The translations under genes were made by a program, and so were the position numbers. Of a DNA stretch of 64,000 nt, positions 25,996-51,019 are shown one piece after another; position 1 is the first letter of the stretch; each line of letters opens with the position of its first letter. This DNA is from Fistulifera solaris (Eukaryota). The stretch is from contig AP026127.1 of assembly GCA_030295235.1 (NCBI GenBank), positions 1,364,001 to 1,428,000 of the forward strand, given 5' to 3'. The notes under the pieces were generated by a model. The model did no database searches and had not been told where the DNA came from. It saw only the letters and a list, made by a program, of their open reading frames with translations.

Positions 25996-28900
25996 ATGAA
26001 GTATGTTAACATGTTAGAGCAAGATTTGAAAGATGATTCGTCGATCAGCTCGGCGGCGTCCTCTTCCTCGTCTTCTTCCTCCTCCTCCTCTTCTTCATCA
26101 TCGTCGTCGTCGTCCTCCTCCTCCTCTTCGTCATCTTCATCTTCGTCATCCTCTTCCTCCTCGTCATCGGCATCCAAGTCATCGGCGAGTTCTTCTTCTT
26201 CAAAGTCTTCTGGTAGCTCGTCTTCTTCAGGAAATACGAGTAACTCAGATACGGCGGATGATTCATCAAAAAGAAGTCAGTCGTCAGATTCAGATACGGG
26301 GGAAAGCTCAAGTGCTGCGCCGAGCTCGGATGCTTCGTCTGCTTCATCGAGTAGTAAAAGCAGTCGAAGCAGCAAAAGTAGCGACGACGACAGTCAATCG
26401 AGTCGAAGTAGTCAAAGCAGTCGTAGTAGTAGCAGCAGCAGCAACAGCACTACCGCCAATTCTGCCTCCGAAAATGAAACCGACAGAGAAAGTGATACTG
26501 TCGGTGACTCTACGGCAGCATCAACTACATCTGCATCGGATGACAAGGATGAATCGTCTCAATCATCTTCATCGAACTCATCGGATTCAGAATCAACAAA
26601 GAGCGATGATGACAGCTCTCGTGACAGTTCGTCAACTACTTCCGAACATTCCGAATCGAATCAATCAACAGGCCCGTCCGCTATTGACTCGACTGAAGCG
26701 GAAGCTCCACCGGCTGTCATCTCCACTGATGCGGAAACCTCGGTAGATGAAGACTCCGTCGATACAGAATCCAGAAAGGTAGATATAGCATCAGCTAGTT
26801 TGTTGCAAAGCCCCGAACGAGATACACAATCGGAAGATCGAAACGTTGAAACAGCGCACGACGCCTCGGAAACATCGCGATCGGCACATGAAGAGCTTGA
26901 GCAAAGAGTAGACGATAGTCCGCGGGAAGAGTCTGACGATCGTGAAAGGGTAGAGCAGTTGAATCTACACGATGAACAGGAAGTTATTTCGGAGAAAGAG
27001 TATCTTACATCGCACGCAGCAGACCAGTCAGACTATGATGGTAGTTCAAAAGAAGTGAATTATGCACCCGCTCAACGTTCCTCGGAAGCGAAAGTTGAAG
27101 CGGGCAATACAGCTGAAGATGTCGATATCGTGACAAAAGCTGCCATGGAAGCAACTTTGTTCGAAGAACAAAAGCCACGTCGACAGTCGCGTTTGATAGA
27201 CTTAGATGACTCTGAGTTCCCCGACGATGATGACGACGAAGACGAGGAAGGAATTACGGCAGTGCTACCGCCAGCAATAACAAATGTGGCCGCAGCGAAT
27301 CGCAATGACGAAGACGAGGACGCCCGTGATGAGCTAAACAAAATTATTCCGCCGGGCGATTCCGCAACAGAATTGCAATCCACCACTGCTGCAGACTCTA
27401 AAAAGAAACGTGGCTTGATGCGATTATTTCGACGTAAAGACCGGTCTCGATCGAAAAGCCGTGACAGGGATCCGCTTCCACAAGAACCAATTCCTACCGT
27501 TGCCTCGAGCAACATCCAAACGGGAAGGGAGGATTCACGCACTGTTGTGGAAGTGACAGGCAATGAAGACGCGATGGTGGAGCGAACAGATATTGATGAA
27601 ATCTCGAAACCCGCGGAAACGATGGGGGATGCTTCAACTTATCGCATTGATGAAATCGACAGTCATTTGCAAGAAGAACCGGGGTCTGCTAATCAGATAT
27701 CAGAGGTCTCGTCAACAGCTGTATCCGTCCCAGAGAAAAAGAAGAGGAGAGGAATCTTTGGTTTCAATAATCGAAAAGATAAAGCTGCACCCTCGGAAGA
27801 GAGACACAGCCTTCGGCTTCTCATGGCCCGTCATCGCAATCTCACTCTGCGGCCACTGCTACGCCAACTATTGCTCCTATTGAAACTGACCAGTTGCCGG
27901 AAAAGACGAAAAAGAGAGGTCTTTTTGGAATCGGGCGCAGAGCAAAGGTGAAGTCAGCAGAAGACCAAGAAGACGATACGCCCTCTGACGTTACCCCTTT
28001 AGCTTCAGATTTGAACATGGAGAGAGGAGTGTCCTCAATGGAACCTTTCCCCATAATTGAGGGTTCTAGCACCGATAAAGACGCAACAAAAGCTCTCGAA
28101 GATTCGAGAAGGCCTGTGTCGGAAGTGGCGGCACAAGACACAAAATTTGCCGACGAATCGGCAATATTGCTCACCGGAATGGCAAAACTAATGGCTGAAG
28201 ACGAGACCCCCGACGAAGCACAAGAAGCAGCAAGAGTAAAAGCAGAAGAGACTGCGAGGCTGCTAGCGGAAGAGCAGGCCGAAGAAGAAGCGGCACGATT
28301 GAAAGCGGAAGAAGATGAAAAAGCTAGATTGTTGGCCGAAATTAAGGCCGAAGAAGAAGAGGCCAGGTTGAAAGAAGAAACGGCAAGAATTCAAGCGGAA
28401 GAAGAAGAAGATAATGCGAGGCTGCTAGCGGAAAAGCAGGCCGAAGAAGAAGCGGCAAGATTGAGAGCGGAAGAAGAAGAGAAATTTAGATTGTTTGCCG
28501 CAAGACAAGCCGAAGAAGAAGAGGCCAGGTTAAAAGCAGAAGAAGCGGCAAGAGTGAAAGCGGAAGAAGAAGAGAATGCGAGGTTGCTAGCGGAAAAGCA
28601 GGCCGAAGAAGAAGCGGCAAGATTGAAAGCGGAAGAAGAAGAAAAGGCTAGATTGCTGGCAGAAAAACAGGCCGAAGAGGAAGCAGAGCTGAAGGCAAAG
28701 GCAGCAAAGGAGCTCGAAGACAAAGAGAAAGAAAAAATCAAAAAGTAGTCTATTTTCCATTTTGCAGCATCGGAGAGAATTAGCCGACAGCGGAAAAGAC
28801 ACGGGGACGATCTTATAAAGAGAAAGAAAGAACTACAAGATGACAAACCGTCGATGAGTACTGACTTGGCAGCGATCTTTAGTAGGCGGAGGCAAAAGAC

Positions 28901-31900
28901 TGAATCGAGCAACGACGAACAAAGTATCGACGATAAAATTCGAAGGAATCACCCGCCTGAAAAGTCCACGGTGAAGATGAATGATGAAGTTCAGATGGCT
29001 TTGCTAAGACGAAGAATGGCCACAGAAAATGCGAAAGTGGACAGAGAGGATGACCGAGTGGAAACTACGACTCAGGAGGACCAAAACCGTTCAGGAGACA
29101 TGGCTCACGATGAGGGAGGAACGCTTGAACGTTAACGTCCAGGATGAAGAGGAATCCTCAAAACCCATTTTTGTTCTTGTCGATGATGAAGGATCTGAGG
29201 AGGACGTCGTGGACGAGGAACAAAATTCCCAAGTAGGTGACGAGGAACAGGGAAAGAGATCTAACCTCGATGACGAGGACGGGGCCTCTGATGCGGAAGC
29301 TGAGGTTGAGGACGACGACTCCGATGTCGAGGCTGAGACTGGGGACGACGACTCCGATGTCGAAGCTGAGAGTGAAGATGAAGACTCCGATGTCGAAGCT
29401 GAGAGTGAGGACGAAAATTGTGAAGTGGAAGCTGAAAGTGAAGACGAAGACTCCGAAGCTGACGTTGAAAATGAAGAGGACTCTGAAGTGGAAGTTGAGA
29501 GCGAGGAAAATTTGAACAACGAGGTCTTTGAAGTAGGTGACGATTCCAATATTGAGAACGAAGATGAAGAGGAAGAAGTCGAGGAGGATTGCTATGAGGT
29601 TGAGAATCTTGAGCACGAATTAGAAGAAGAATCTGAAATCGAAGAAGAATTATTAGAGGAATCTGAAGAGTACGAAGATATAGAAGTAGGAGATGCTGCG
29701 ATCGAGCAAGAGTTCATTGCGGACTCTGTCAACGAGATTGCAGTCGTCTCTGACGATGATGATAATTTCGATAATGCTCATTCTGTCGAACCAACAGCCT
29801 CAAGTGAAGTTATTCTTGAGGATCGGGAAGCAACTAGCAACGAAAATAAGTCTTGGTTCTGGTGGAAAAGAAGAAAAATCTTGAAGAAGTCGAGGCCGAA
29901 TTGAACGCTCGCGAAGAACAACAATTAGAAGAGGGTGAAAAACAAGCAGAAAGGCGTTGGTGGCCGAGGAAAGCCGATCTCGCCCGGGACGACTCTGAAC
30001 CCGAGCTTCATGATGAAAATCAAAAAGAGGAAAGTGAAGAACCAGTGAAACGAAGCTGGTGGAAGAGGCAAGGTATTCCGGCAGAGCCCCTTCCCAATCA
30101 TCATGAGGAACCATTTGCAGCGGATAGTCTGAAAGAAGATCGCATGGAAGACAAATTAGGCTCAGATCCCCACGACCTAAAAGCAAAACGAAGCGGCCAA
30201 AGTACCATTATTTATGCGCCGCTGGCGGACATCGAAAGAACATGCTGCAGGTGACGAAATTGAACCTGAAGTGCCCGATGAGCCCCAAAAAAAGGAGGGT
30301 GTAATTCCAGTGAAAAGTGGCTGGTGGGCAAAGACTGAAAGCTCTCCAGTAAACGAAGCGGGAATTGATCATGTCAATGAAAGGCAGAAAAGAGAAAGTA
30401 CACCGCGAGAAAAACGCGGATGGTGGACTAGAAGCGAGAAAAACCCAGCAACTGTAGCTGTGGATGAAGAGGAAGCACTCATGGTCGTATCAGCAGACTG
30501 CGAGCCTGGAGCTTCTGATCGGTTAGATCGCACGGGCAACAAAGATGCATCAATAAAAGCGACCGGGCTTGACAGTGACGTCGAGATGCAGCGAGATGAT
30601 CCGATCGCCAGAGAGATGTCGGACATTGCCCCAAAAACGATTGAGCCAGAGCCAGGAAAGGACTCTAAAAGGAATTGGACTGGTAACCATTGGTCAAAGC
30701 GGTGCTTACTTTTGATGGGAATTCTTCTTATTGCCATTGGCATCGCCGCCGGTGTCGGTATTGGAATTGCCGTCGGAGAAGACGATCCCGCTGCCCCTTC
30801 AATTGAATCTACACCCGCCCCAACCGGTGCGCCTTCTGAAGCCGTGCCTATTGATCCTAATCAAAAACAAGCGTATGACTTGCTTTGTCCTCTCGTTCTT
30901 AATTGCGAATCATTGCTTGACCTCGAGACGCCTCAAGGAACTGCTTTCAAATGGTTGACAGAAAGCGAGCCAAAAGCTACGGATGACTTGCGTATAATCC
31001 AGCGCTATGCCTTGGCTACTTTATATTACAGTACGAATGGTGATTCGTGGACCGACAATTCGGATTGGGTTACCGACGCCGATGAATGTCTTTGGTATTC
31101 TAGTTCCTCAGACTCCCAACGATGTTCACCTGATAACGAATTGTTGGTGCTCTCACTAAACGATAATAACCTCCAAGGAGAGCTGCCGCATGAGATATCG
31201 TTGCTAACAACGCTAACCAGCATAAGTATTCGCAATCCTCGCGACAACACCCCTACTTTGACCGGCGGTATTCCGTCGGGTGTGATTTCGCTGTCCGTCC
31301 TCAGCTCACTTGTCATTTCTGGAAATAGCTTCGAAGGTCCGATCCCCTCCGAGATCGGCAAACTAACACAGCTACAGCAGCTTGATCTAAGCTTCAACAG
31401 CCTTCAAGGTGACATTCCTGGGTCATTTTCTACACTTACCGAAATCACTTTCCTCGACCTTTCCGGTAACTTGCTGGAATCCATTCCATCTGATCTCTTT
31501 TCCTCATTATCAATGCTAAAGGAAATGAACCTGGAAGAAAACTACTTCACAGCGATTCCCGATTCAATTTCAAGTCTGTCGTCTCTTGAAAAGTTGAGCT
31601 TGAGGCAAAACAGCTTCGAAGAGTTTCCCCTTGGCATACTCTCCGTGACTAGCCTCCAGGTGCTCGATCTTAGTGAGAACAACTACGTCGGTAGCTCGAT
31701 TCCGGAGCAAATCAGCAACTTGGTGAATTTGCGACAGCTAAATATGAAAGCCAACGCTTTAATTAGCACCATTCCATCAACAATGGGTCTACTGACACAG
31801 CTTCAACGACTCGACTTGAGTGAAAATGCTTTACAAGGGACCATTCCAACAAACCTCGGTGGCGCAACTAATGTCCGTCAGCTTCTCTTGAACTCAAACC

Positions 31901-32148: not shown

Positions 32149-33193
32149 TTTCCCTGTCTTGTAAAACTTTAATAAAAATAGGAAAAACCGATATAGCAAT
32201 AGCGACTACTCCAATACTCGAAAAATAAAAAGTCTCTATAAATTCGTAGAAATAACGCCATCCAGAAAGATATTATGGCTGAATGTTGTGTCAGCGTGAA
32301 AGTTGATCTTGTCGCCCTTGATGCTAACATCGGTGAAGTCTAGTTAATCGAACTTGTAGCAGTTTCAGCGCTCGTTCTGAGTTTAGAATGAGCTTGCATG
32401 TTACTGCGCGCTTCAATGACAACAGTCAAAAGACAACGATAAGTAATCGTTCTTCCCTTGCACTCGCAGGACGGCGCATCGATCCTAGACAGAATTTCAA
32501 GACATGACAAGCGCTCGTTACGTACAAGCGCCACGAAAACGACAGATCGTGGCCAACCACCACTATTTTAATACTATTTCTTGAAAAAACGGAAATGCCA
32601 TTGCGTCCTTTCGAGTTTCGAAAAGAAAAGTTTCCAGAAAAGAACAAGCGAAAGACTAGAGCCATCTTTTTGCGTCATTGCAAGATCCTACGGACGGCAC
32701 AGACATCGCACACCCAAGCACATTGTAAGAGCCACAGTATAAGTTATTAGCGAAAGAACCATCACTATTATAACTTCACCATTCAAAGATGCTCCTCGTC
32801 CATCATGATGCTTCACATTGCAGCATTATTCAGCATCGCACGTCGTGCATCATAAGCCTTATGCACTTATGCATCATGCATGCATCATCGGCGCATTATG
32901 GTGACACGGGCGTTAAATGTATAGGCAACAGTGTAGTCTCGGTGACTATGTATCATTGTGACGGAATGTTTCTGCTTAGAGTTTCGCGTCACCCACCGGT
33001 ACCAAGTACGCTAAGAAATTGTTCAACGGTTGCTCGATCGCTGAAACTGCGCGCAAACCGAGTTTCAAATGGTTCCAAATTCTTTTTTTCTTTCGACATT
33101 CCATTATTTTACTTCTTCGTTGCCTGCTTACGAAACTTTCCTTCAACCTTTACGATCATTCATTGATTCTCTTCTAGTTTGTCAAAACCAAGT

Positions 33194-34739
33194 ATGGAAA
33201 GCGACTGTTTTCAATCACCGGAAATCTTCTACGGCTTGAGTGAAATGAAAAAGCATTGCGGGCCACCACCAGAAGACATTTTGAATCTGAGCGAATGCCA
33301 TTTCAGGACGATAGCATCGATGTTACAATTCCAAAGCAAAATAGTAAATACTACAACCGTGACATCAGCCTTATCAAATATGCCCTGGCCTCTGGATCTT
33401 TAAGAGAAATCGATTGGGATAATGTCGCAGTCGATTTGAGAAAGTCAATCAAGAGGTTCTTTGCAGGATGCGATTTGTTGAATGGCCACGCAAAATGCTT
33501 ACTCTACAACAATGAAGAGAATATTGACCGTAAGATGTTGAAAGAAAAGAAAACGATGGCCGATATCCTTTCGGCTCGGACGGTTGTGATCGACGACGAC
33601 TATCTTCTCAACCAAAAGGTGGATCTATTTGTCGTTCATGCCTATGGTATTGCTTTATTGGGCATTCCTTCCGCAACAATGTGCGAGAAAGTCATGACTC
33701 GAATGAAAGCGACAACAAACATTGATCTTACACCAGAAGCGGGATTTTCCACAAAAATAGTCGAGGTTGCTATACCGTGACTTTCGGTGTAACCTTTATG
33801 CTCCAAAGTGGCAAGAACAATACGAAAAGTACGATCGAGGCTGCTGGCGCCGAACGCTACCGACTACGACTCGTGCAAAAGGATCCACTGGAATCAGCGA
33901 AGAAACGTAAAACGCCAAATCTTACGGACGGCAAGGCGAAAAAGAAACAGAAAGCGCCGGACGATTCGACCAAAATTACGACAGGAGGAAACAAGGACGA
34001 AGTAAAAGCATTAAATTATCCACACGATCTTGGAGGGTGCGTTCGCGGAGTTTATGCAAAATTGTGCATTCCTGCTTTAGGGCAAAGATCATTGAATCGA
34101 TCGGAGAGATTAAACGGGGACTTTGTCAATCGAAGCATTCTGAACCTTCCGTCACCTTTGAATACTTCGATTCCAAAAAAAGACATCAAAGGTTAAATGC
34201 GACTGTGCCGAATATGAACTGAAGTGCCGGGAAATTGGCGAACGAATAATGATCGAGTTCTTTGGCCTTATGCGAATGCGCCTCTTATAGCTGCGAACAA
34301 TCTACGGGCGTTTTTCGATAAATGCAAGAATGAGTACCCTGAGGGAAAATGGCTACGCCGGATATTTCCGAAAGGGTCCGTATGCTCATACGCAGATGGT
34401 AAAGATCTCCATAATGACGAAAACGGTAGAATTTCACCTTCCGTTTGGATCAATCTGACAGAAAATGAAAATAGCGTGCTGGAATTCAAGTTGACCGGCT
34501 TCGCGGCTCAGATCAAATGCTCCAAGAACAGATTCGTGTGGTTCATGGGTTACGTGCCGCATCAATTCTATAATCTGAAAGGAGAAAAAGAGTTCGACAG
34601 GATTCACTACTATGGCTACTCAAAGCCCGAGTGCGAACACTGGGGGCTTGTGACCTGCAGTTTTGTGAATAATAGGGGCCCCGCCGAAGGAAGAAAGAAG
34701 TTAAAGTCAAGATTGGTAAGACGTTCCATCACATCTTGA
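33194..34739 (+). CDS. TET/JBP-like 2OG-Fe(II) dioxygenase domain protein; 3-4 frameshifts (sequencing errors or pseudogene)
   Basis: HxD (LHNDEN, 34410), distal His 50 residues later (FMGYVPH, 34560), R-x5-Y (DRIHYYGY, 34599); upstream ORFs 33179, 33256 and 33777 abut it and carry a basic NLS-like 'AKKRK..KAKKKQK'. Confidence 0.55.
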
Positions 34740-35169
34740 AAAACTTACCGCAAACGGCGCGGAAGAAGTGAAGATACGGTTTGAAAAATCTTTTGTTTCG
34801 CCAGTTCGAAGTGCCAGACAGCATTACAAGTTGAATTATAAGAAGACGCGGTGCCCGCGAAGGATCCTCACACGTACGTCAAACGATTGATGGTTACCAG
34901 TTGATGGAGTGAAGGGATACATGAGATAGCAGTGCAAATTGTAGTAGCTTGACAAAGGACACACTACGTCTTATAAAAGCTTAGATACATGGATATCAAT
35001 TCTACACGGACTCAGTTCTTTCTCACAAAGTGTGTGCAGCTGATCGTGTCCGTTTCGGAACAGAACTAATGGCTGGTTCACTCTTCAAACAAGGATCTTC
35101 GTTCGATACGTCCTGACCATTCGATTGGTTGAACAAGATCATGTTTTCCCGATTTCGCTTAAACTTTTC

Positions 35170-35841
35170 TTACGTTTCAAAGGAGCAGTGTTTGGGGCAA
35201 GTGCCCCGGCGCTTGCTTTGCTCGTAACAGTTCTCTTTTTCTTCACTCCGGAATGATTTCATGCTTTTTGAAAGCACAGCATTGTTTTCCATCGCACTCA
35301 CTGGGACTTGCGTCAAAACATCCACCGTCTTTGCCCCACCTTTCGCACTAGGATCATCAATTCGAATACTCTTGGGCTGTGACTGTTTCTTCGATAGGCT
35401 CTCCTTTTCTTCGCTTCGCTCGGGCTTTTTGATTTTCGGCGGATCAACGTACTTTTCTAGTTCCCCTGCCGTCATGTGTTCGCGATCCCCATCATCGTAA
35501 TGAATCATGTATGCTCGTACAGCGACGCCGCCCTCCTCTTCTACGTACTCGGAATGCACAACCGTCCCTCCATATTCACATGCTTTTCCTGGCTCTGTGT
35601 TAGAGTAGAAAAGCCTACTCATTCTCGTACCGTTGGGGTATTTCGGTTCGTCATAGGATCGTTTGGAGGAATCTGCATCCACCGGAACTTTATCATCCAA
35701 AAGATCCACCAACTGTGACAAGCGAAGCCGCAGCATCAAAACCCACTTGCCTAGCTTCTCGGTCGCTCCGATGCGCGGTACATTCGTGTGACCGTTAGCT
35801 TTCTTGAAATCGGCGACGAGAGTCGAAGGTTTGTCGTCCAT
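35170..35841 (-). CDS. Helicase-associated (HA)-like repeat + Tudor-like domain protein
   Basis: 'LVADFKKANGHTNVP.....LGKWV' (HA motif) and 'PKYPNGTRMSRLF...YGGTVV...YMIHYDDGDREHM' (Tudor-like). Confidence 0.7.
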   Translation of the reverse strand: MDDKPSTLVADFKKANGHTNVPRIGATEKLGKWVLMLRLRLSQLVDLLDDKVPVDADSSKRSYDEPKYPNGTRMSRLFYSNTEPGKACEYGGTVVHSEYVEEEGGVAVRAYMIHYDDGDREHMTAGELEKYVDPPKIKKPERSEEKESLSKKQSQPKSIRIDDPSAKGGAKTVDVLTQVPVSAMENNAVLSKSMKSFRSEEKENCYEQSKRRGTCPKHCSFET

Positions 35842-36351
35842 TCGTCATGGTTTCCCGAATCATCACCGGCGAGAGGAATGCTTGAAGCCATGGTAGCACG
35901 TTGCAAATCAAATAGAGAATAGAAGGAGACGTTTTTACTACTTCCAACTGCAATGACGGTTTCTCAAGTAAGAGTTTTGTTGTTGTGGATGCTTCGAATG
36001 AACGCGTGTTTGCATTGTTTTCCTTGGCATGAAATTTTGACTGCTGTATTCTGATGGCATGAAATTTTGGGAGAGGGCTTTTTTCGACGTGTACCGTCAC
36101 TCTGCGACATGAAGCACAAGTCACAATTAATAATTAAAGAACCGGTACGAAGCCCATCTCCGCTTGTTCACTGTACTTCGAAAAGTACTATACCTGCTAA
36201 GTGTCACAAAGCACACATCAGACATAAAATGTGTCTGTTGCACTTTTACTCCGTCGGCACCGACGCAAACGCAACAAACAAAATGCTTTTATCTCAATGC
36301 AAATATTCATTCCTCGAATCAACCTTCGTTCTTACAAATAAAATTTATATC

Positions 36352-37797
36352 ATGTCCTTTTTAGCCTCGCGTGTTGCTGCAGCCTCAGTTCGTGCATTGG
36401 GAAGCACCTTGATTGTCGGATGTTGGCTGCAACATGAGAAAGATCGTCATGCACGGTGTGAGACAATTTCTCAGTCTCCTGCTTCTTCCTTGGAGCATAC
36501 TATGCAAACGATCGCTGGTAATCCAACGTATGAAGCACCAAACGGAAAGAAAACGGATAATCTCTTTTACAATGATGGCGATTCCTTTCCGAACCTATCG
36601 CGGCACGGGTCAAACTCGTTGCTGAAAAAGTATCTGACGCCGGACGTTTACGAGCAACTCAAAGATAAACAAACATCCGCTGGAGTCAAATTGGAAGATC
36701 TCATTCAAGGGGGAATCGCTCTGCCTTGGGGGGCTCGTCCGCCGCGGGGAATCGCTGGTGTTTACGCCGGAGATGCTGGTACGTGCCTTCTTTTCTTGAT
36801 TTATACATACGGCATCGTTGTCTCACATTCTTTTCGCAAATCACAAAACAAAACAATCTACTTCTTTGAATGAAAAGAATCGTACACAACATTTTCTGTG
36901 TTACTCTCGCCTCTGATTGAAGCTCATCACAAAGCGCTGCATCGGGCACGATTGCGAAGACATCGCACGAACTTGGATGTACAAGGGCTTTCACAGCGTC
37001 GCTTGGATGGAGCGTACATTTTGTATACGCGCATGCGGTTAGCGAGATCATTGAATGGTTTTAAATTTGCTCCCTGCATTGGTCGAAGTGAGCGTCGAGC
37101 CGTGGAGCGTTTGCTGCGCGATTGCAGTCGCGATTGGCCACAGGGCTCTTACATCTCTCTCATGGAAATGTCGAACAATCAACATGAGGATTTGGTGAAG
37201 CGCCAACTGTTGTTTGCCGATCCGGATGAATTTGCAATTTCGACGGGCATGGGGCGTGATTGGCCAGATGGTCGGGGAATTTATTGCGATTCATGGGATG
37301 ATTTGCCGCACATCATGATGTGGGTGAACGCGCAAGATCATCTCTGGATTATTAGCAACGCCAAAGGTGGAGACGTTCAGGGTGTCTTTACAAGACTGTC
37401 GATGGCAGTAAGGAGTCTCGAAAAGAGCTTGAACGATCGAGGACAAAGTTTCGTTGAAGACCCGAACTTGGGTTTCCTTAATGCGTCTCCCGTAGACATT
37501 GGTACTGCACTCCGGGCAAGTTTATACGTCAAACTGGTCCGCTTGGGCCAGAAGCCGGGGTTTGATGAGTTGGTGCGGCGTCTTCGCTTAGAAGCTCGCC
37601 CTTTAAAGTTTCAGAGCCAGACTTACACTGGGATGTTTGATATTGCAAACTTGGAAGCCCTCGGGAAAACGGAAGTAGATCTGATCAATTTAATGATTGA
37701 AGGAGTGGGCACTCTGATTGATCTGGAGAAGCGGCTAGAAAATGGTGAAGACATTGACATAGAGGCAATTGCGCAAAAGAAAGGGAGTAGAAAGTAG
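36352..37797 (+). CDS. ATP:guanido phosphotransferase (arginine/creatine kinase)-like protein, probably mitochondrial; intron 36779-36877
   Basis: 'SLLKKYLTPDVY', spliced 'GVYAGDA|ESY..F', 'TRMRLARSLNG', 'DWPDGRGIY', 'GTALRAS'; N-terminus MSFLASRVAAASVR resembles a transit peptide. Confidence 0.9.
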
Positions 37798-47590: not shown

Positions 47591-48347
47591 TAAAAAAAAT
47601 CGAGGATCACTTTTACGAGTACGAGCTGCTACTTGTAGTTGATGTGGATATGGTCGCTAAAGTACTGATTGGGTACCGGTGAGGTCTTTTTTGTTTTTTA
47701 CGCTCAATTATCGGTGATGACGTCATTTTTTCTTCTTCCTTTACCTTTTCTCGCTATCGTCATCGTCAAAAAATGCGATTGGTGGAAGTCGTTCTTGTTT
47801 GGGAAAACATTTCGCACTGCTCGAGTTGCGCGTGTTCTTGGTTCGCCTGTTTCAAAACTATGAACTATCGGTCGTAAAGGACACGAAGGTATGGCTCCCT
47901 ATTTGCACATGGAATGTCGAATTTCAGTTGACAAAGAAGACCGCCTAAAGAGACATTATCAATACTTTGTAGTTCAAACGTTAGCGTTAGTACGTGTTCC
48001 GGTCGTGCATGGTGACTTACCGGTACTGAAGTATGGCGTATCAAGTGTTCTGACGTGTGACGCGTGACCGCGTGACGGATGATTTTGCCTGCATGCGCGG
48101 CGTCCTGAGCTTTGTTCGCACCGCGAGGTTGACGATGATGCTCTGCAACTGCCCAAGTAAATTCGTCTCATCATTATTTGTGCAATCGTTCTACTCCTCG
48201 GTCCAGTTTTCAGGGGAAGCATATTACTGTTGAGATTCCGTTTCTCGCGCTTTACGGACAACAAGAGCAACAAGATAAAGCTCGTAAACGCTTTGAACGA
48301 ATATCGTTCATTTGTTTCTGACGCTGCGTCTCCTTCGCAACAAAGGA

Positions 48348-51019
48348 ATGGACTATCACAATCTTCCCGTGAACGTGAACGGCGGTGACTACGATGATGA
48401 CGACAGTCTCTCCATTGAAGAAAGCAACGGTCAATTATTCGAAAATGGTTTAAAATGTAGCTACAGCGACAATCAAGGTCAGCAATTGCGCTTTCGGGCA
48501 ACTTCACTAAGAGGCGACGGATACGGCAGCGGCAGTGGAGATCCAGGCAATAGCCTCGTGGAAGACAACACGATTCAATCGCACAATTACGAGCCTGATG
48601 AAAGTGAAGTCTGGCGTGCCTACACGGCGCAATTGCATTTTCGCAATCGAGGACACTGGTGGACGACGGGCAAGAAGCGTTCGCTTATGCGCTGGGTACT
48701 GACGTTCATTATAGGAGTCGTACAAGCACTCGTCGCTATTCTTTCCAATATCGCTTGTCGAAGTCTGTCCCGACGAAAATTTGAGCACGTTTATCAATAT
48801 CTAACTGTGCCGGAACCATCCAGCAGTGTCACAATTGATACGGCTCAAGATTTATTTCAGTTTGATGACGATGCAACGACCGATGGCGCGGCGTCACATT
48901 CCTCCTTGAATCAAAACGTGACCCCGAGTCTTTTTACCGCATTCTTTTATTTTGTTCTTTATCAGTTGGTGTTTGCTGCGATTGCCAGCGTCTTTGTTTG
49001 GATTGAGCCTGTCTCGGGAGGCTCCGGTATTCCGGAAATCAAATGCTTTTTGAACGGTATTGACATTCCTCGGGTCGTTCGAATCAAGACACTGTTTTGT
49101 AAGGTCATCGGTGTCACCTTCAGTGTAGCGGCGGGCTTGCCGGTCGGAAAAGAAGGACCCATGGTGCATTCGGGGTCTGTTGTCGCCGCGGGTATTTCTC
49201 AGGGAAAGACGACTTTGTTTGGACAAGACACTTCGTTTTCTAAATTCAGCGACTTTCGAAACGATCGAGAAAAGAGAGATTTTGTAGCCTGCGGTGCAGC
49301 TGCTGGTGTTTGCAGTGCCTTCGGAAGTCCGATTGGTGGCGTGCTCTTCAGTCTCGAGGAAGCTTCTTCGTACTTTAGTACCAAACTGACCTGGTGAGAA
49401 CAGGACACGCATTGTTTGCGTACGATCCATAAGTCGCATTCTAACATGTCTCTTCGTCTCCTGATACAGGCGTGCGTTTTTCTGTGCCATGACTACTCTT
49501 GCCACTCTTTTTGGATTCGAAACTTCGATTCTCTATGGGGACAAGCGAACATCGAGAAAATGTTTTCCTTTGGAGAATTCAATTCTATCAGCAGAGAGGC
49601 ATCCAATTTTTCAATTTGGGAACTGATCCTTTTTACTATGGTAGGATGTTTGGGAGGATTGATCGGGGCCGTTTTCAATGCAGCCAACGAGCATTTGACG
49701 ATTTGGCGTATGAAGAAAGTCAACAAATCTAAGTCGAGACGATTTGTAGAAGTTCTTTGTGTAAGCCTGGGCGTTTCTATCGTCAGTTTCTTAATGCCCG
49801 TTCTGTGGGGGCGCTGCACGAAGCTGCCCACCGATATGCAGGACTGGACGAACCAAGAGAAGAATTTGGTAGAAGCCTTGGTACCCTTTCGTTGTGTGCC
49901 GGGCAAGGAATACAATGAAGTGGCTAGTTTGATTTTTACCGAGTCAGACATTGCGATCAAGCAGTTGTTTCACTTTCGCGAAGCGGGGCATCGGATATGT
50001 CAACTTTCAGCTCGGGAGCATTATTCTTTTTCTTCGTCCCTTACATTGTCATGGCGACGATAACGTATGGCACCGCTGTTCCCTCCGGTTTGTTTGTACC
50101 ATCGCTTCTATCGGGTGCTGCTTTTGGGAGACTTGTTGGTCACTTGCTTCACAAATTGGACCATACTAACGGGACGTTCGCTGACTCTGGTACATACGCA
50201 TTGATTGGAGCTGCCGCTGTATTAGGTGGAATGGCCCGCATGACAATCAGCTTGACGGTAATCCTTTTGGAAGCGACAGGTGATATGCAGTATGTGCTAC
50301 CGCTCATGTTGACACTCATGGCAGCTAGATTCACGGGTAATGTGTTCAATGAAGGTCTTTACGACATTCACATCCACTTGAAAAACATTCCTTTCCTTGA
50401 ACCCGACGTGCCGCCCATTGCCGAACGCTCGGAGATTGTTGCTGGTCAGGTGATGTCGACAGAGGTTAAATGCCTTCGTCCTGTGGAACGAGCAGGAGTC
50501 GTGTACGATTTGTTACAGCAATGCGGCCATGGAACGTTTCCCATTGTCGATATGGCCAGTGGTGGAACTTTGTACGGAACAGCAAGTCGTTACATGCTAT
50601 TTACGCTGCTACAAAGGCGTGCCTTCGGTTCGCCGGATGTAATTTCAGGCGACTACGATGGAGACACATTGGGTCCCCGCCGTCTGAGTCCGCTAGTTCA
50701 ATGGGATACGATTGAAAAGGCATATCCAAGGTATCCTAGGATTTCGGATGTGCACTTGCGCGAACAGGATCGCAACTGCTGGTTGGATTTGCGCCCATAC
50801 GCGAATACAGCGCCGTACACGATCAATGAGACGGCGTCAATCCAACGCACCTATCGGTTGTTCCGTACTCTTGGCTTGCGGTTTCTATGTGTCGTCAATC
50901 ACAACAATCAAGTTGTCGGTATCATTACACGAAAAGATCTGTTGCCACGTGCTCTGAGTGAATCTTTACTCCGAGGGCGCAACGCCCATGTCAACGAGGA
51001 CTCGCTGGGTTTTACATAA
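48348..51019 (+). CDS. CLC family Cl-/H+ exchanger (CLC-6/7, CLC-d-like) with two CBS domains; intron 49394-49469; frameshifts at about 49510 and 49990
   Basis: GSGIPE, GKEGPM, GGVLFSLEE, PSGLFVP, MARMTISL, GLYDIHI and CBS 'LGLRFLCVV..VVGIITRKDL'. Confidence 0.95.

Follow-up and report, generated by a model that had tools for sequence, protein, structure and literature searches.

The locus at ~33295-34739 on the + strand of the window (the whole 64,000-nucleotide stretch of Fistulifera solaris DNA analysed here) is probably the decayed and no longer functional remnant of a gene without introns, one of a family whose intact members belong, at deep divergence, with the TET/JBP-like Fe(II)/2-oxoglutarate dioxygenases; we hold this reading with moderate confidence. 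In such an enzyme, the histidines of the HxD and Hxs motifs together with the aspartate would hold iron, and the arginine of Rx5a would hold 2-oxoglutarate. The substrate of the family would be 5mC or thymine in nucleic acid, and the reaction would hydroxylate the methyl group of this 5-methylpyrimidine after the base has been flipped out of the nucleic acid, most likely DNA. The window copy itself would make no enzyme.

Layout of the locus and its frame breaks

A profile search in three frames places the locus colinear with positions 15-450 of the 482 in family profile A1, and its coding sequence is split over frames 1, 0, 1 and 0 (33244-33780, 33726-34196, 34162-34290, and 34218-34739). The N-terminal segment of the TET-like gene (33295..33759, + strand, frame 1) opens with an in-frame ATG at 33295 and corresponds to profile positions 15-145 (hmmsearch with A1, E 6e-17, nt 33298-33759); a start at 33194 in frame 2, proposed earlier, has no homology in its favor, as the profile match begins only at 33298. 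Frame break 1 (33750..33771, + strand, frame 1 to frame 0) is a true feature of the organism; the profile switches frame at 33759, and the linker found in the family (profile positions 146-157) is missing here. The middle segment that follows (33759..34174, + strand, frame 0; profile positions 158-196 and 207-274) carries in translation a YTVTFG motif, a K/R-rich insert, and the motif LNLPSPLNTSIP. The insert is lineage specific, with the K/R-rich stretch KKRKTPNLTDGKAKKKQK at ~33889-33945, and is possibly an NLS.

Apparent frame break 2 falls in an A-run of 7 (34175..34181, + strand), of which one A is an assembly error, public contigs having 6. Next to it lies the helical segment AEYELKCREIGERIMIEFF (34176..34262, + strand, frame 1 in the window; profile positions 275-306; hmmsearch E 1e-4, nt 34174-34269), across the region of which the intact relative P0078 reads uninterrupted. 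Frame break 3 (34255..34266, + strand, frame 1 to frame 0) is real, with 2 nt in the window set against 9 nt (FF-KTL-PYA) in P0078, which amounts to a 7-nt deletion in the window. The C-terminal double-stranded beta-helix core (34263..34739, + strand, frame 0; profile match E 4e-48) contains the FPKGS strand, HND, the distal His (H-Q-F), RIHYYGY, and the stop TGA that is read from the sequence at 34737-34739 (+ strand); this frame is without any Met upstream of HxD. The preliminary description had presented a gene of ~500 aa with an NLS, hidden by frameshifts and convergent on an HA-Tudor gene; the length of ~480 aa, the K/R-rich stretch, the split frames, and the convergent HA/Tudor-like ORF that we find agree with this outline, with the amendment that the window assembly, and not the organism, is the origin of the break at 34175.

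The state of the gene depends on how the remaining breaks are interpreted. It could be argued that the gene is functional and encodes a working enzyme of ~480 aa, the other breaks then being explained by errors in the assembly or the contigs, by introns of very small size, or by programmed ribosomal frameshifting. The history of the break at 34175 lends this some force: 1 letter is absent there in the public contigs of X1 (17.7/17.7), X2 (11/11), and X3 (9/9), omission of the extra A merges 33726-34290 into a single open frame of 187 codons, and a further indel difference between the window and public contigs lies at 34790. As one of the three breaks has proved to be an assembly error, additional errors are conceivable; this assembly has homopolymer indel errors, and any frame break in it should be compared with reads. 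The window copy also still encodes all four catalytic residues (two His, one Asp, and one Arg), and its substitutions relative to a second copy favor third codon positions (8:9:21 by codon position, hence 21/38 third, p=0.016, with 38 of the ~85 differences examined), an excess that indicates past coding constraint.

We nevertheless consider a working gene very unlikely. The breaks at ~33760 and ~34260 are present in every contig covering them, so that the reading frame is interrupted in the public contigs as it is in the window, and there is no long homopolymer at either place. Break 1 is spanned gap-free by contigs X1 record 4, X2 record 6, and X3 record 7, with X4 record 10 extending to 33766, and break 3 by contigs X1 record 4, X2 record 6, and X3 record 8. 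These contigs are of short-read type and come from three to four runs, which are partly dependent, X1 and X3 originating from one study and X2 being near-identical to the window. An intron does not fit either, since homology is continuous over both breaks; GT..AG candidates that could bridge the frames were enumerated and ruled out, family homology running through every junction, and at break 1 there is no room for an intron because the conserved YTVTFG in frame 0 directly follows the frame-1 stop at 33778. The 7-nt deletion at break 3 speaks against function as well, as do three substitutions at conserved sites (D377N, T428F, and S451Y), each unique to the window among 63-71 family rows, and the second copy likewise carries breaks, located elsewhere than in the window copy. 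A metagenome protein, P0079 (262 aa), seems to run through the stops; it was considered as open-frame evidence and set aside, as its gene call reads TGA as W. With both breaks standing in all covering contigs, the window copy is therefore most likely a pseudogene and not a hidden working gene. The polishing of frameshifts suggested earlier consequently rescues the break at 34175 and leaves the other two in place.

The second copy (X1 record 5) shows ~85-90% identity to the window over four pieces, 62 nt of 3' flank included. The PFK encoded in the window shows 100% identity to a protein named from Fistulifera solaris. This species is described in the literature as allodiploid, and a second copy diverged by ~10-15% with homologous flanks therefore looks like a homeolog; we conclude that this diverged, broken copy is probably the homeologous one.

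The protein family and its catalytic motifs

A phmmer search with the C-terminal piece against 1.8 billion representatives recovers 75 representatives at E<=1e-3, and full-length members of the family measure 430-730 aa with the domain at their C-terminus. Six of the 75 matches were dropped before A2, comprising the window's own piece (P0002), the short or frame-jumping fragments P0011, P0016, P0041, and P0055, and P0058 (1235 aa), a false positive that belongs to a bacterial DUF5018/DUF285 repeat protein. The gene of this family is intronless. Related metagenome loci were scanned with A3, a closer alignment than A1, and seven loci carry single-exon ORFs that are intact or truncated by the contig end. 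Purifying selection is evident in one intact orthologous pair of the family (L001 versus L002), with a dN/dS of 0.094 over 242 codons.

Wider searches left the family at this extent and without a name. A word-indexed homolog search with the C-terminal piece ("longer" lengths) yielded 124 candidates, none of which was accepted, and its counterpart with profile A1 returned 3 proteins and did not widen the family; viral contigs scanned with two peptide patterns contained no relative. None of 20 family clusters has an NCBI or UniProt name. At E<=10, Pfam gives no match, Tet_JBP included, on 4 window pieces, Pfam Tet_JBP (PF12851) matches 0/71 aligned family rows, and searches of PDB sequences with profiles A1 and A4 yield no chain of a TET. 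The sole PDB-sequence match at E<1, to RNase J (E 0.09), falls on an N-terminal helix and was rejected. Judged by sequence homology, we are dealing with an unannotated protist family to which the window locus is homologous.

The motifs named in the preliminary description (HND, a 50-residue spacing of the histidines, and RIHYYGY) can all be read directly in the window. H-N-D (CAT AAT GAC) occupies 34410-34418, the codon CAT at 34560-34562 encodes the distal His, which comes exactly 50 residues past the first His, and R-I-H-Y-Y-G-Y (AGG..TAC; R-x5-Y) is located at 34599-34619. Naegleria gruberi Tet1 (NgTet1) has the same spacing of 50 residues between HxD and the distal His (H229 to H279). Across the 71-row family alignment, the HxD histidine is found in 71/71 rows and the aspartate in 68/71, the distal His in 69/69 with a small residue (T/S/V/C/A) at H+2 in 68/69, and the Rx5a arginine in 60/65 with an aromatic residue at R+6 in 62/63; because of this conservation across the family, the motifs are beyond chance. 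Hxs, in which a small residue stands two positions after the distal His, and Rx5a are given as Tet-JBP signatures in a passage of a published analysis (PMC4150289). HxD and Rx5a are present in the window copy, whereas Hxs, kept by the family, is lost from it, its H-Q-F being the sole row with a residue that is not small.

Predicted fold and comparison with known oxygenases

The intact family members are predicted to have a TET/JBP-like fold. The AF2 model of the intact member P0017, computed with the 71-row alignment, reaches a pLDDT of 90.1 and a pTM of 0.90, and it presents a double-stranded beta-helix (DSBH) with a TET-type N-terminal elaboration, closest to the solved TETs. In a Foldseek search of the PDB, CcTet (5.8e-8), TET2 (2e-6), and NgTet1 (1.4e-4) come ahead of all other 2OG oxygenases. 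VIA-align gives Z 14.9 for NgTet1 (236 of 264 residues, rmsd 3.7), 14.3 for TET2, and 14.0 for CcTet, with FTO at 10.2 and AlkB at 8-9. In an independent scan, which covered 48,161 solved chains, TET2 (Z 14.1), NgTet1 (14.1), and CcTet (13.8) likewise rank first to third, with FTO next at 9.8. Within the model, H376 ends strand 373-376, H426 starts strand 426-430, and the arginine precedes strand 448-453, as a DSBH predicts. Named BFVD matches include JBP1/TET oxygenases, and the nearest clusters in the ESM Atlas carry PF12851 (score 0.87, 174/256 features shared), which we treat as a lead only.

The TET/JBP fold that had been proposed from the motifs is thus supported by the model of an intact member, for which three TETs take the top of the scan, and by a family that keeps HxD, Hxs, and Rx5a. 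Folded alone with AF2, the window's own C-terminal piece reaches a pLDDT of 73, with strands at 62-65, 74-79, 86-92, 95-100, 106-110, 115-119, and 130-134, and presents only a generic double-stranded beta-helix for which PHD2 and cupins, not TET, are the top matches.

A rival reading takes the members for 2OG/Fe(II) oxygenases of some kind other than a 5-methylpyrimidine oxidase of TET/JBP type, the resemblance to TET reflecting the common scaffold only; an N-demethylase similar to AlkB/FTO, an enzyme that modifies RNA, and a hydroxylase of proteins or small molecules would then be the candidates. Beyond the PHD2 and cupin matches of the isolated piece, such a reading is consistent with the lack of Tet_JBP matches among the family rows and of TETs in the PDB sequence searches, with an identity to TETs of 9-15% in structural alignments, and with the observation that FTO, CMD1, and AlkB also reach Z 8-10. 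We regard it as unlikely, given that the TETs at ranks 1-3 come from three kingdoms and stand ~4 Z above FTO/AlkB in the scan, and that the alignments to them span 236-280 residues and extend beyond the jelly roll to include the N-terminal elaboration. The retention of the Hxs and Rx5a signatures by the family argues in the same direction, and the closest non-TET structures (FTO, CMD1, and the AlkB family) all modify nucleic-acid bases.

Taking the intact members as TET/JBP-like, NgTet1 (PDB 4lt5, 5cg8, 5cg9) is the enzyme closest to the P0017 model by VIA-align. Like NgTet1, the family is limited to a compact TET core and has neither CXXC nor a Cys-rich domain. It exceeds NgTet1 by ~180 residues, as additional helices and loops follow its N-terminal sheet and precede the jelly roll, and the two are 11-13% identical without an HMM-level match; on the side of the family, the arginine lies ~21 residues past the distal His, and the window copy is frameshifted. 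The catalytic domain of human TET2 (PDB 4nm6, 7ne6, 9hxv; 271 residues aligned) and Coprinopsis CcTet (7vpn, 7w5p, 8jkk; 245 residues aligned) share HxD, Hxs, and Rx5a with the family, which has no Cys-rich domain, no CXXC, and no large low-complexity insert.

Chlamydomonas CMD1 (PDB 7cy4-7cy8) provides an algal reference within the TET/JBP superfamily and is a vitamin-C-dependent, 5mC glyceryl-transferring TET homolog. It aligns to the family model over 250-262 residues at Z 9.3-10.3, clearly below the 2OG-dependent TETs, and as the Rx5a arginine is present in 60/65 rows, we infer that the family would use 2-oxoglutarate rather than vitamin C, unlike CMD1. The FTO/AlkB-family demethylases (3lfm, 8jnr, 3khb) are the next-best folds and likewise Fe/2OG enzymes with flipped-out bases as their targets; their alignments cover 165-200 residues and are confined to the jelly roll, the N-terminal part of TET type remaining unaligned.

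Neighborhood of the locus and significance

The neighbors of the locus are housekeeping genes (an LRR protein, arginine kinase, PFK, and a CLC channel). No transposase, RT, or integrase domain was detected in any of 86 distinct window ORFs of >=110 aa, eleven ORFs that overlap identified genes having been excluded from this screen, and the surroundings of the locus contain neither terminal inverted repeats nor long direct ones. The neighborhood had been called TE- and Tudor-rich, and neither label is supported. The Tudor label goes back to one ORF, the convergent neighbor at 35170..35844 (- strand), which lies outside the gene and is context only; its matches to Pfam HA (E 8.9e-4; 20 bits, cut-off 28.4) and PTM_DIR17_Tudor (E 1.6e-3; 18.6 bits, cut-off 27.2) are both below threshold.

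The same observations bear on the suggestion that the gene is transposon cargo with an anti-silencing role, in which case the decayed copies would be dead copies of an element. In fungi, TET/JBP genes are carried along by KDZ elements, and such a mode of spread would be in keeping with the existence of at least one further diverged and broken copy (X1 record 5) and with the frame jumps in fragments P0011, P0016, and P0041. A linkage to KDZ transposons such as that of CcTet-type fungal genes is not seen at the window or at the family loci. Pfam assigns no domain to the neighbors of the intact homologs at L003 and L007, and apart from the orthologous pair L001/L002 no two of the seven loci with homologs share a neighbor. 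Together with the housekeeping neighbors, the lack of terminal repeats, and a second copy whose divergence and homologous flanks match the expectation for a homeolog, this makes the cargo proposal highly improbable, and we retain the interpretation of two decayed copies that are probably homeologs.

Diatoms methylate cytosines, chiefly on transposons, and to our knowledge no diatom enzyme that removes or oxidizes 5mC has been characterized. As the intact members are predicted to fold like TET, the family is therefore a candidate for a diatom DNA-demethylation enzyme. A full-text literature search for TET/JBP with diatoms or stramenopiles returned no paper describing such a family and one review sentence only, which speaks of "TET homologues" in Phaeodactylum and cites a 2012 PhD thesis (PMC9033121). 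A survey of another stramenopile alga, in the passage concerned, gives TET homologs as absent (PMC12019312).

A conserved and selected family, tied to TET by structure prediction alone, would be a concrete candidate for diatom epigenetics, while the window locus is of limited value because it is probably a dead copy. It is possible, although we put this forward as a tentative and rather doubtful extension, that a deeply divergent and as yet unannotated TET/JBP clade, invisible to Pfam and under strong purifying selection, exists in diatoms and in marine protists related to them and provides the 5mC oxidase/demethylase missing from their epigenomes, or else a thymine hydroxylase that makes 5hmU, with both homeologs decayed in the present species. 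If this were true, the decay of both homeologs would turn this allodiploid diatom into a natural loss-of-function case.

Frame breaks and probable decay of the window copy

On the forward strand, the coding signal at 33194-34739 is split among four open frames that overlap one another, 33244-33780 (frame 1), 33726-34196 (frame 0), 34162-34290 (frame 1), and 34218-34739 (frame 0), and in this respect the preliminary description was right to call the gene hidden by frameshifts. The motifs it listed are likewise all present: H-N-D (codons CAT AAT GAC, 34410-34418), a distal histidine codon exactly 50 residues past the first His (34560-34562), and R-I-H-Y-Y-G-Y (34599-34619), followed by a stop codon at 34737-34739. 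The segment at about 33889-33945 is rich in K and R. None of the pieces of the locus matches Pfam, even at E ≤ 10. The family profile A1 (482 positions, built from 30 long members) is colinear with the locus across profile positions 15-450, in frame 1 at nt 33298-33759, in frame 0 at nt 33759-33860 and again from 34020 on, in frame 1 at nt 34174-34269, and in frame 0 up to nt 34667. The gene is therefore intronless and of about 480 codons. Its start is most likely the in-frame ATG at 33295; the ATG at 33194 chosen earlier opens a frame without homology.

Logan contigs from four public runs (X1-X4) were aligned to 32900-35000, with confirmations that are partly dependent, as X1 and X3 come from a single study and X2 is almost identical in sequence to the window. 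The A-run of 7 at 34175 has one base fewer in the X1, X2, and X3 contigs, and leaving out the extra A turns 33726-34290 into a single open frame of 187 codons; this break is therefore an error of the window assembly. The window also lacks a T after 34790, outside the gene, that the public contigs carry, and both 34790 and 34175-34181 are homopolymer-like runs. Further apparent frameshifts in the same assembly may be errors of like kind.

The other two breaks are spanned gap-free by public contigs, at about 33750-33771 by X1 record 4, X2 record 6, and X3 record 7 (X4 record 10 ends at 33766) and at about 34255-34266 by X1 record 4, X2 record 6, and X3 record 8. Polishing, which the preliminary description had proposed, would repair the break at 34175 and leave these two standing. 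Introns do not fit either of them, since family homology runs unbroken across both. At the second, comparison with the intact relative P0078 (FF-KTL-PYA) shows that the window keeps FF and PYA but has 2 nt between them, hence a 7-nt deletion. Within the C-terminal frame there is no Met upstream of HxD, and three conserved-site substitutions are unique to the window among 63-71 family rows, namely D377N (inside the HxD motif), T428F (Hxs), and S451Y (following the Arg). Because of the two contig-confirmed breaks, the missing Met, and these three substitutions, the window copy is most likely a pseudogene, a relic without the capacity to make the catalytic domain. A further change, H450Y, is found in the family alignment in the window and P0001 only.

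A TET/JBP-like fold and signature motifs in the family

With the 173-aa C-terminal piece as query, a phmmer search of 1.84 billion cluster representatives matched 75 proteins at E ≤ 1e-3, 22 of them at E ≤ 1e-10; among the 75 is the fragment from the window itself (P0002). One match, P0058, is a bacterial repeat protein and was rejected as a false positive. Full-length members are 430-730 aa long, with the matching domain C-terminal. No significant Pfam domain was found in the 31 members scanned, no Tet_JBP match at E ≤ 10 in any of 71 family alignment rows (69 of those 75 proteins together with P0076 and the piece from the window), and no TET among PDB sequences with two family profiles.

The AlphaFold2 model of the intact member P0017, built on the 71-row alignment (pLDDT 90.1, pTM 0.90), retrieves with Foldseek the solved TET structures CcTet (5.8e-8), TET2 (2e-6), and NgTet1 (1.4e-4) from the PDB ahead of all non-TETs, the best being T6ODM (4.4e-4), which bears out the TET/JBP-like fold proposed earlier. 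On VIA-align re-scoring of the Foldseek list, the TET family scores Z 14.9 for NgTet1 (236/264 aligned, rmsd 3.7), 14.3 for TET2, 14.0 for CcTet, and 10.3 for the Chlamydomonas homolog CMD1; the best non-TETs are FTO (10.2) and the AlkB family (8-9). An independent VIA-align scan of 48,161 representative chains ranks TET2 (Z 14.1), NgTet1 (14.1), and CcTet (13.8) first to third, with CMD1 at 9.3 and the non-TETs FTO and ALKBH3 at 9.8 and 8.8. Two JBP1/TET oxygenases (2.6e-4 and 8.4e-4) are among the named matches in a viral structure library, and, as a lead only, the closest ESM Atlas clusters carry PF12851 (score 0.87, 174/256 features in common). The window's C-terminal piece folded alone (pLDDT 73.1), by contrast, best matches PHD2 and cupins.

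The family also carries the signatures described for Tet-JBP domains, HxD, Hxs, and Rx5a (PMC4150289). In HxD, H is found in 71/71 rows and D in 68/71; in Hxs, H in 69/69 and a small residue in 68/69; in Rx5a, R in 60/65 and an aromatic in 62/63. From fold and motifs together, the intact proteins are most likely TET/JBP-type dioxygenases that use Fe(II) and 2-oxoglutarate. Residues of HxD and Hxs would be the iron ligands, a geometry read from strand positions, and the Rx5a arginine would bind 2-oxoglutarate, with a 5-methylpyrimidine of DNA (5mC or T) as the presumed substrate to be hydroxylated.

The kind of enzyme is already known, and it may be the clade itself that is new, outside Pfam's reach and unnamed in collections: the 20 clusters looked up in NCBI/UniProt are "hypothetical protein" only. 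In the openly accessible full-text literature, no account of a family like this turned up for diatoms or stramenopiles; the sole printed hint found is one review sentence on TET homologues in Phaeodactylum, citing a 2012 thesis (PMC9033121).

Intact relatives and a second copy

Single-exon family ORFs occur at seven metagenome loci, full length (563-652 codons) at L003, L004, L006, and L007 and cut by contig ends at L001, L002, and L005; none was found in viral contigs. The orthologous pair L001/L002 gives dN/dS 0.094 over 242 codons, at a dS of 1.28 that is near saturation. The four full-length ORFs share just 34-46% mutual identity and all come from one metagenome, reflecting either several paralogs per organism or several host species with the family.

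A second type of copy is seen in X1 record 5, a 5.3-kb contig that matches the stretch in four pieces and takes in 62 nt past the stop, with 43/300, 25/165, 6/62, and 9/62 positions differing and several indels. Substitutions at codon positions 1/2/3 number 8/9/21 (p=0.016; 38 of about 85 differences), and this third-position excess suggests that the two sequences diverged partly under coding constraint and decayed late. The phosphofructokinase ORF of the window shares 100% identity with a protein listed by NCBI under Fistulifera solaris, a species described as allodiploid or allopolyploid (PMC5935921, PMC13276009), and the second copy is most simply a homeolog, provided X1 is from this species too. 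P0011, P0016, and P0041 alternate between the frame of the family and wrong ones, and they resemble pieces of this second type; P0011 keeps HND. Upstream, 111 nt (32935 to 33047) are absent from one X1 contig, and another short contig shows 26 differences and 7 gaps against 33049-33272, either a structural variant or a diverged second copy extending into the 5' flank. P0079 is a spurious 262-aa protein on a 4629-nt metagenome contig that matches 32900-35000: its public gene call reads TGA as Trp, through two stops and beyond the true stop.

Genomic neighborhood

The locus had been placed in TE- and Tudor-rich surroundings, as a possible cargo gene. Of 97 ORFs of at least 110 aa outside it, 86 were scanned (the other 11 overlap identified genes in another frame or strand), and none encodes a transposase, reverse-transcriptase, or integrase domain. 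The neighbors are ordinary genes (LRR protein, arginine kinase, PFK, CLC channel, amine oxidase, glutamine synthetase III, RCC1 repeats), no terminal repeats surround the locus, and no neighbor recurs across loci except in the orthologous pair L001/L002, so that neither the TE-rich setting nor the cargo role is supported. The intact homologs at L003 and L007 have neighbors that match no Pfam domain. The Tudor richness reduces to a single weak match: a minus-strand ORF (35170-35844) does converge on the gene, about 430 nt stop to stop, but its helicase-associated (HA; E 8.9e-4) and PTM/DIR17-like Tudor (E 1.6e-3) matches are sub-threshold.

Elsewhere in the window, 28001-30000 shows strong purine skew (GC skew 0.289, AT skew 0.384) and long overlapping ORFs on both strands with no Pfam match, and is probably low-complexity repeat coding sequence. 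The CLC chloride-channel gene with a CBS domain (48297-51016, +) lies in three ORFs of different frames, a split that could be due to introns or to more assembly indel errors. The arginine-kinase-type gene (36055-37797, +) carries the ATP:guanido phosphotransferase N- and C-terminal domains in two same-frame ORFs, divided by one stop (36871-36873) within a low-complexity stretch resembling an in-frame intron.
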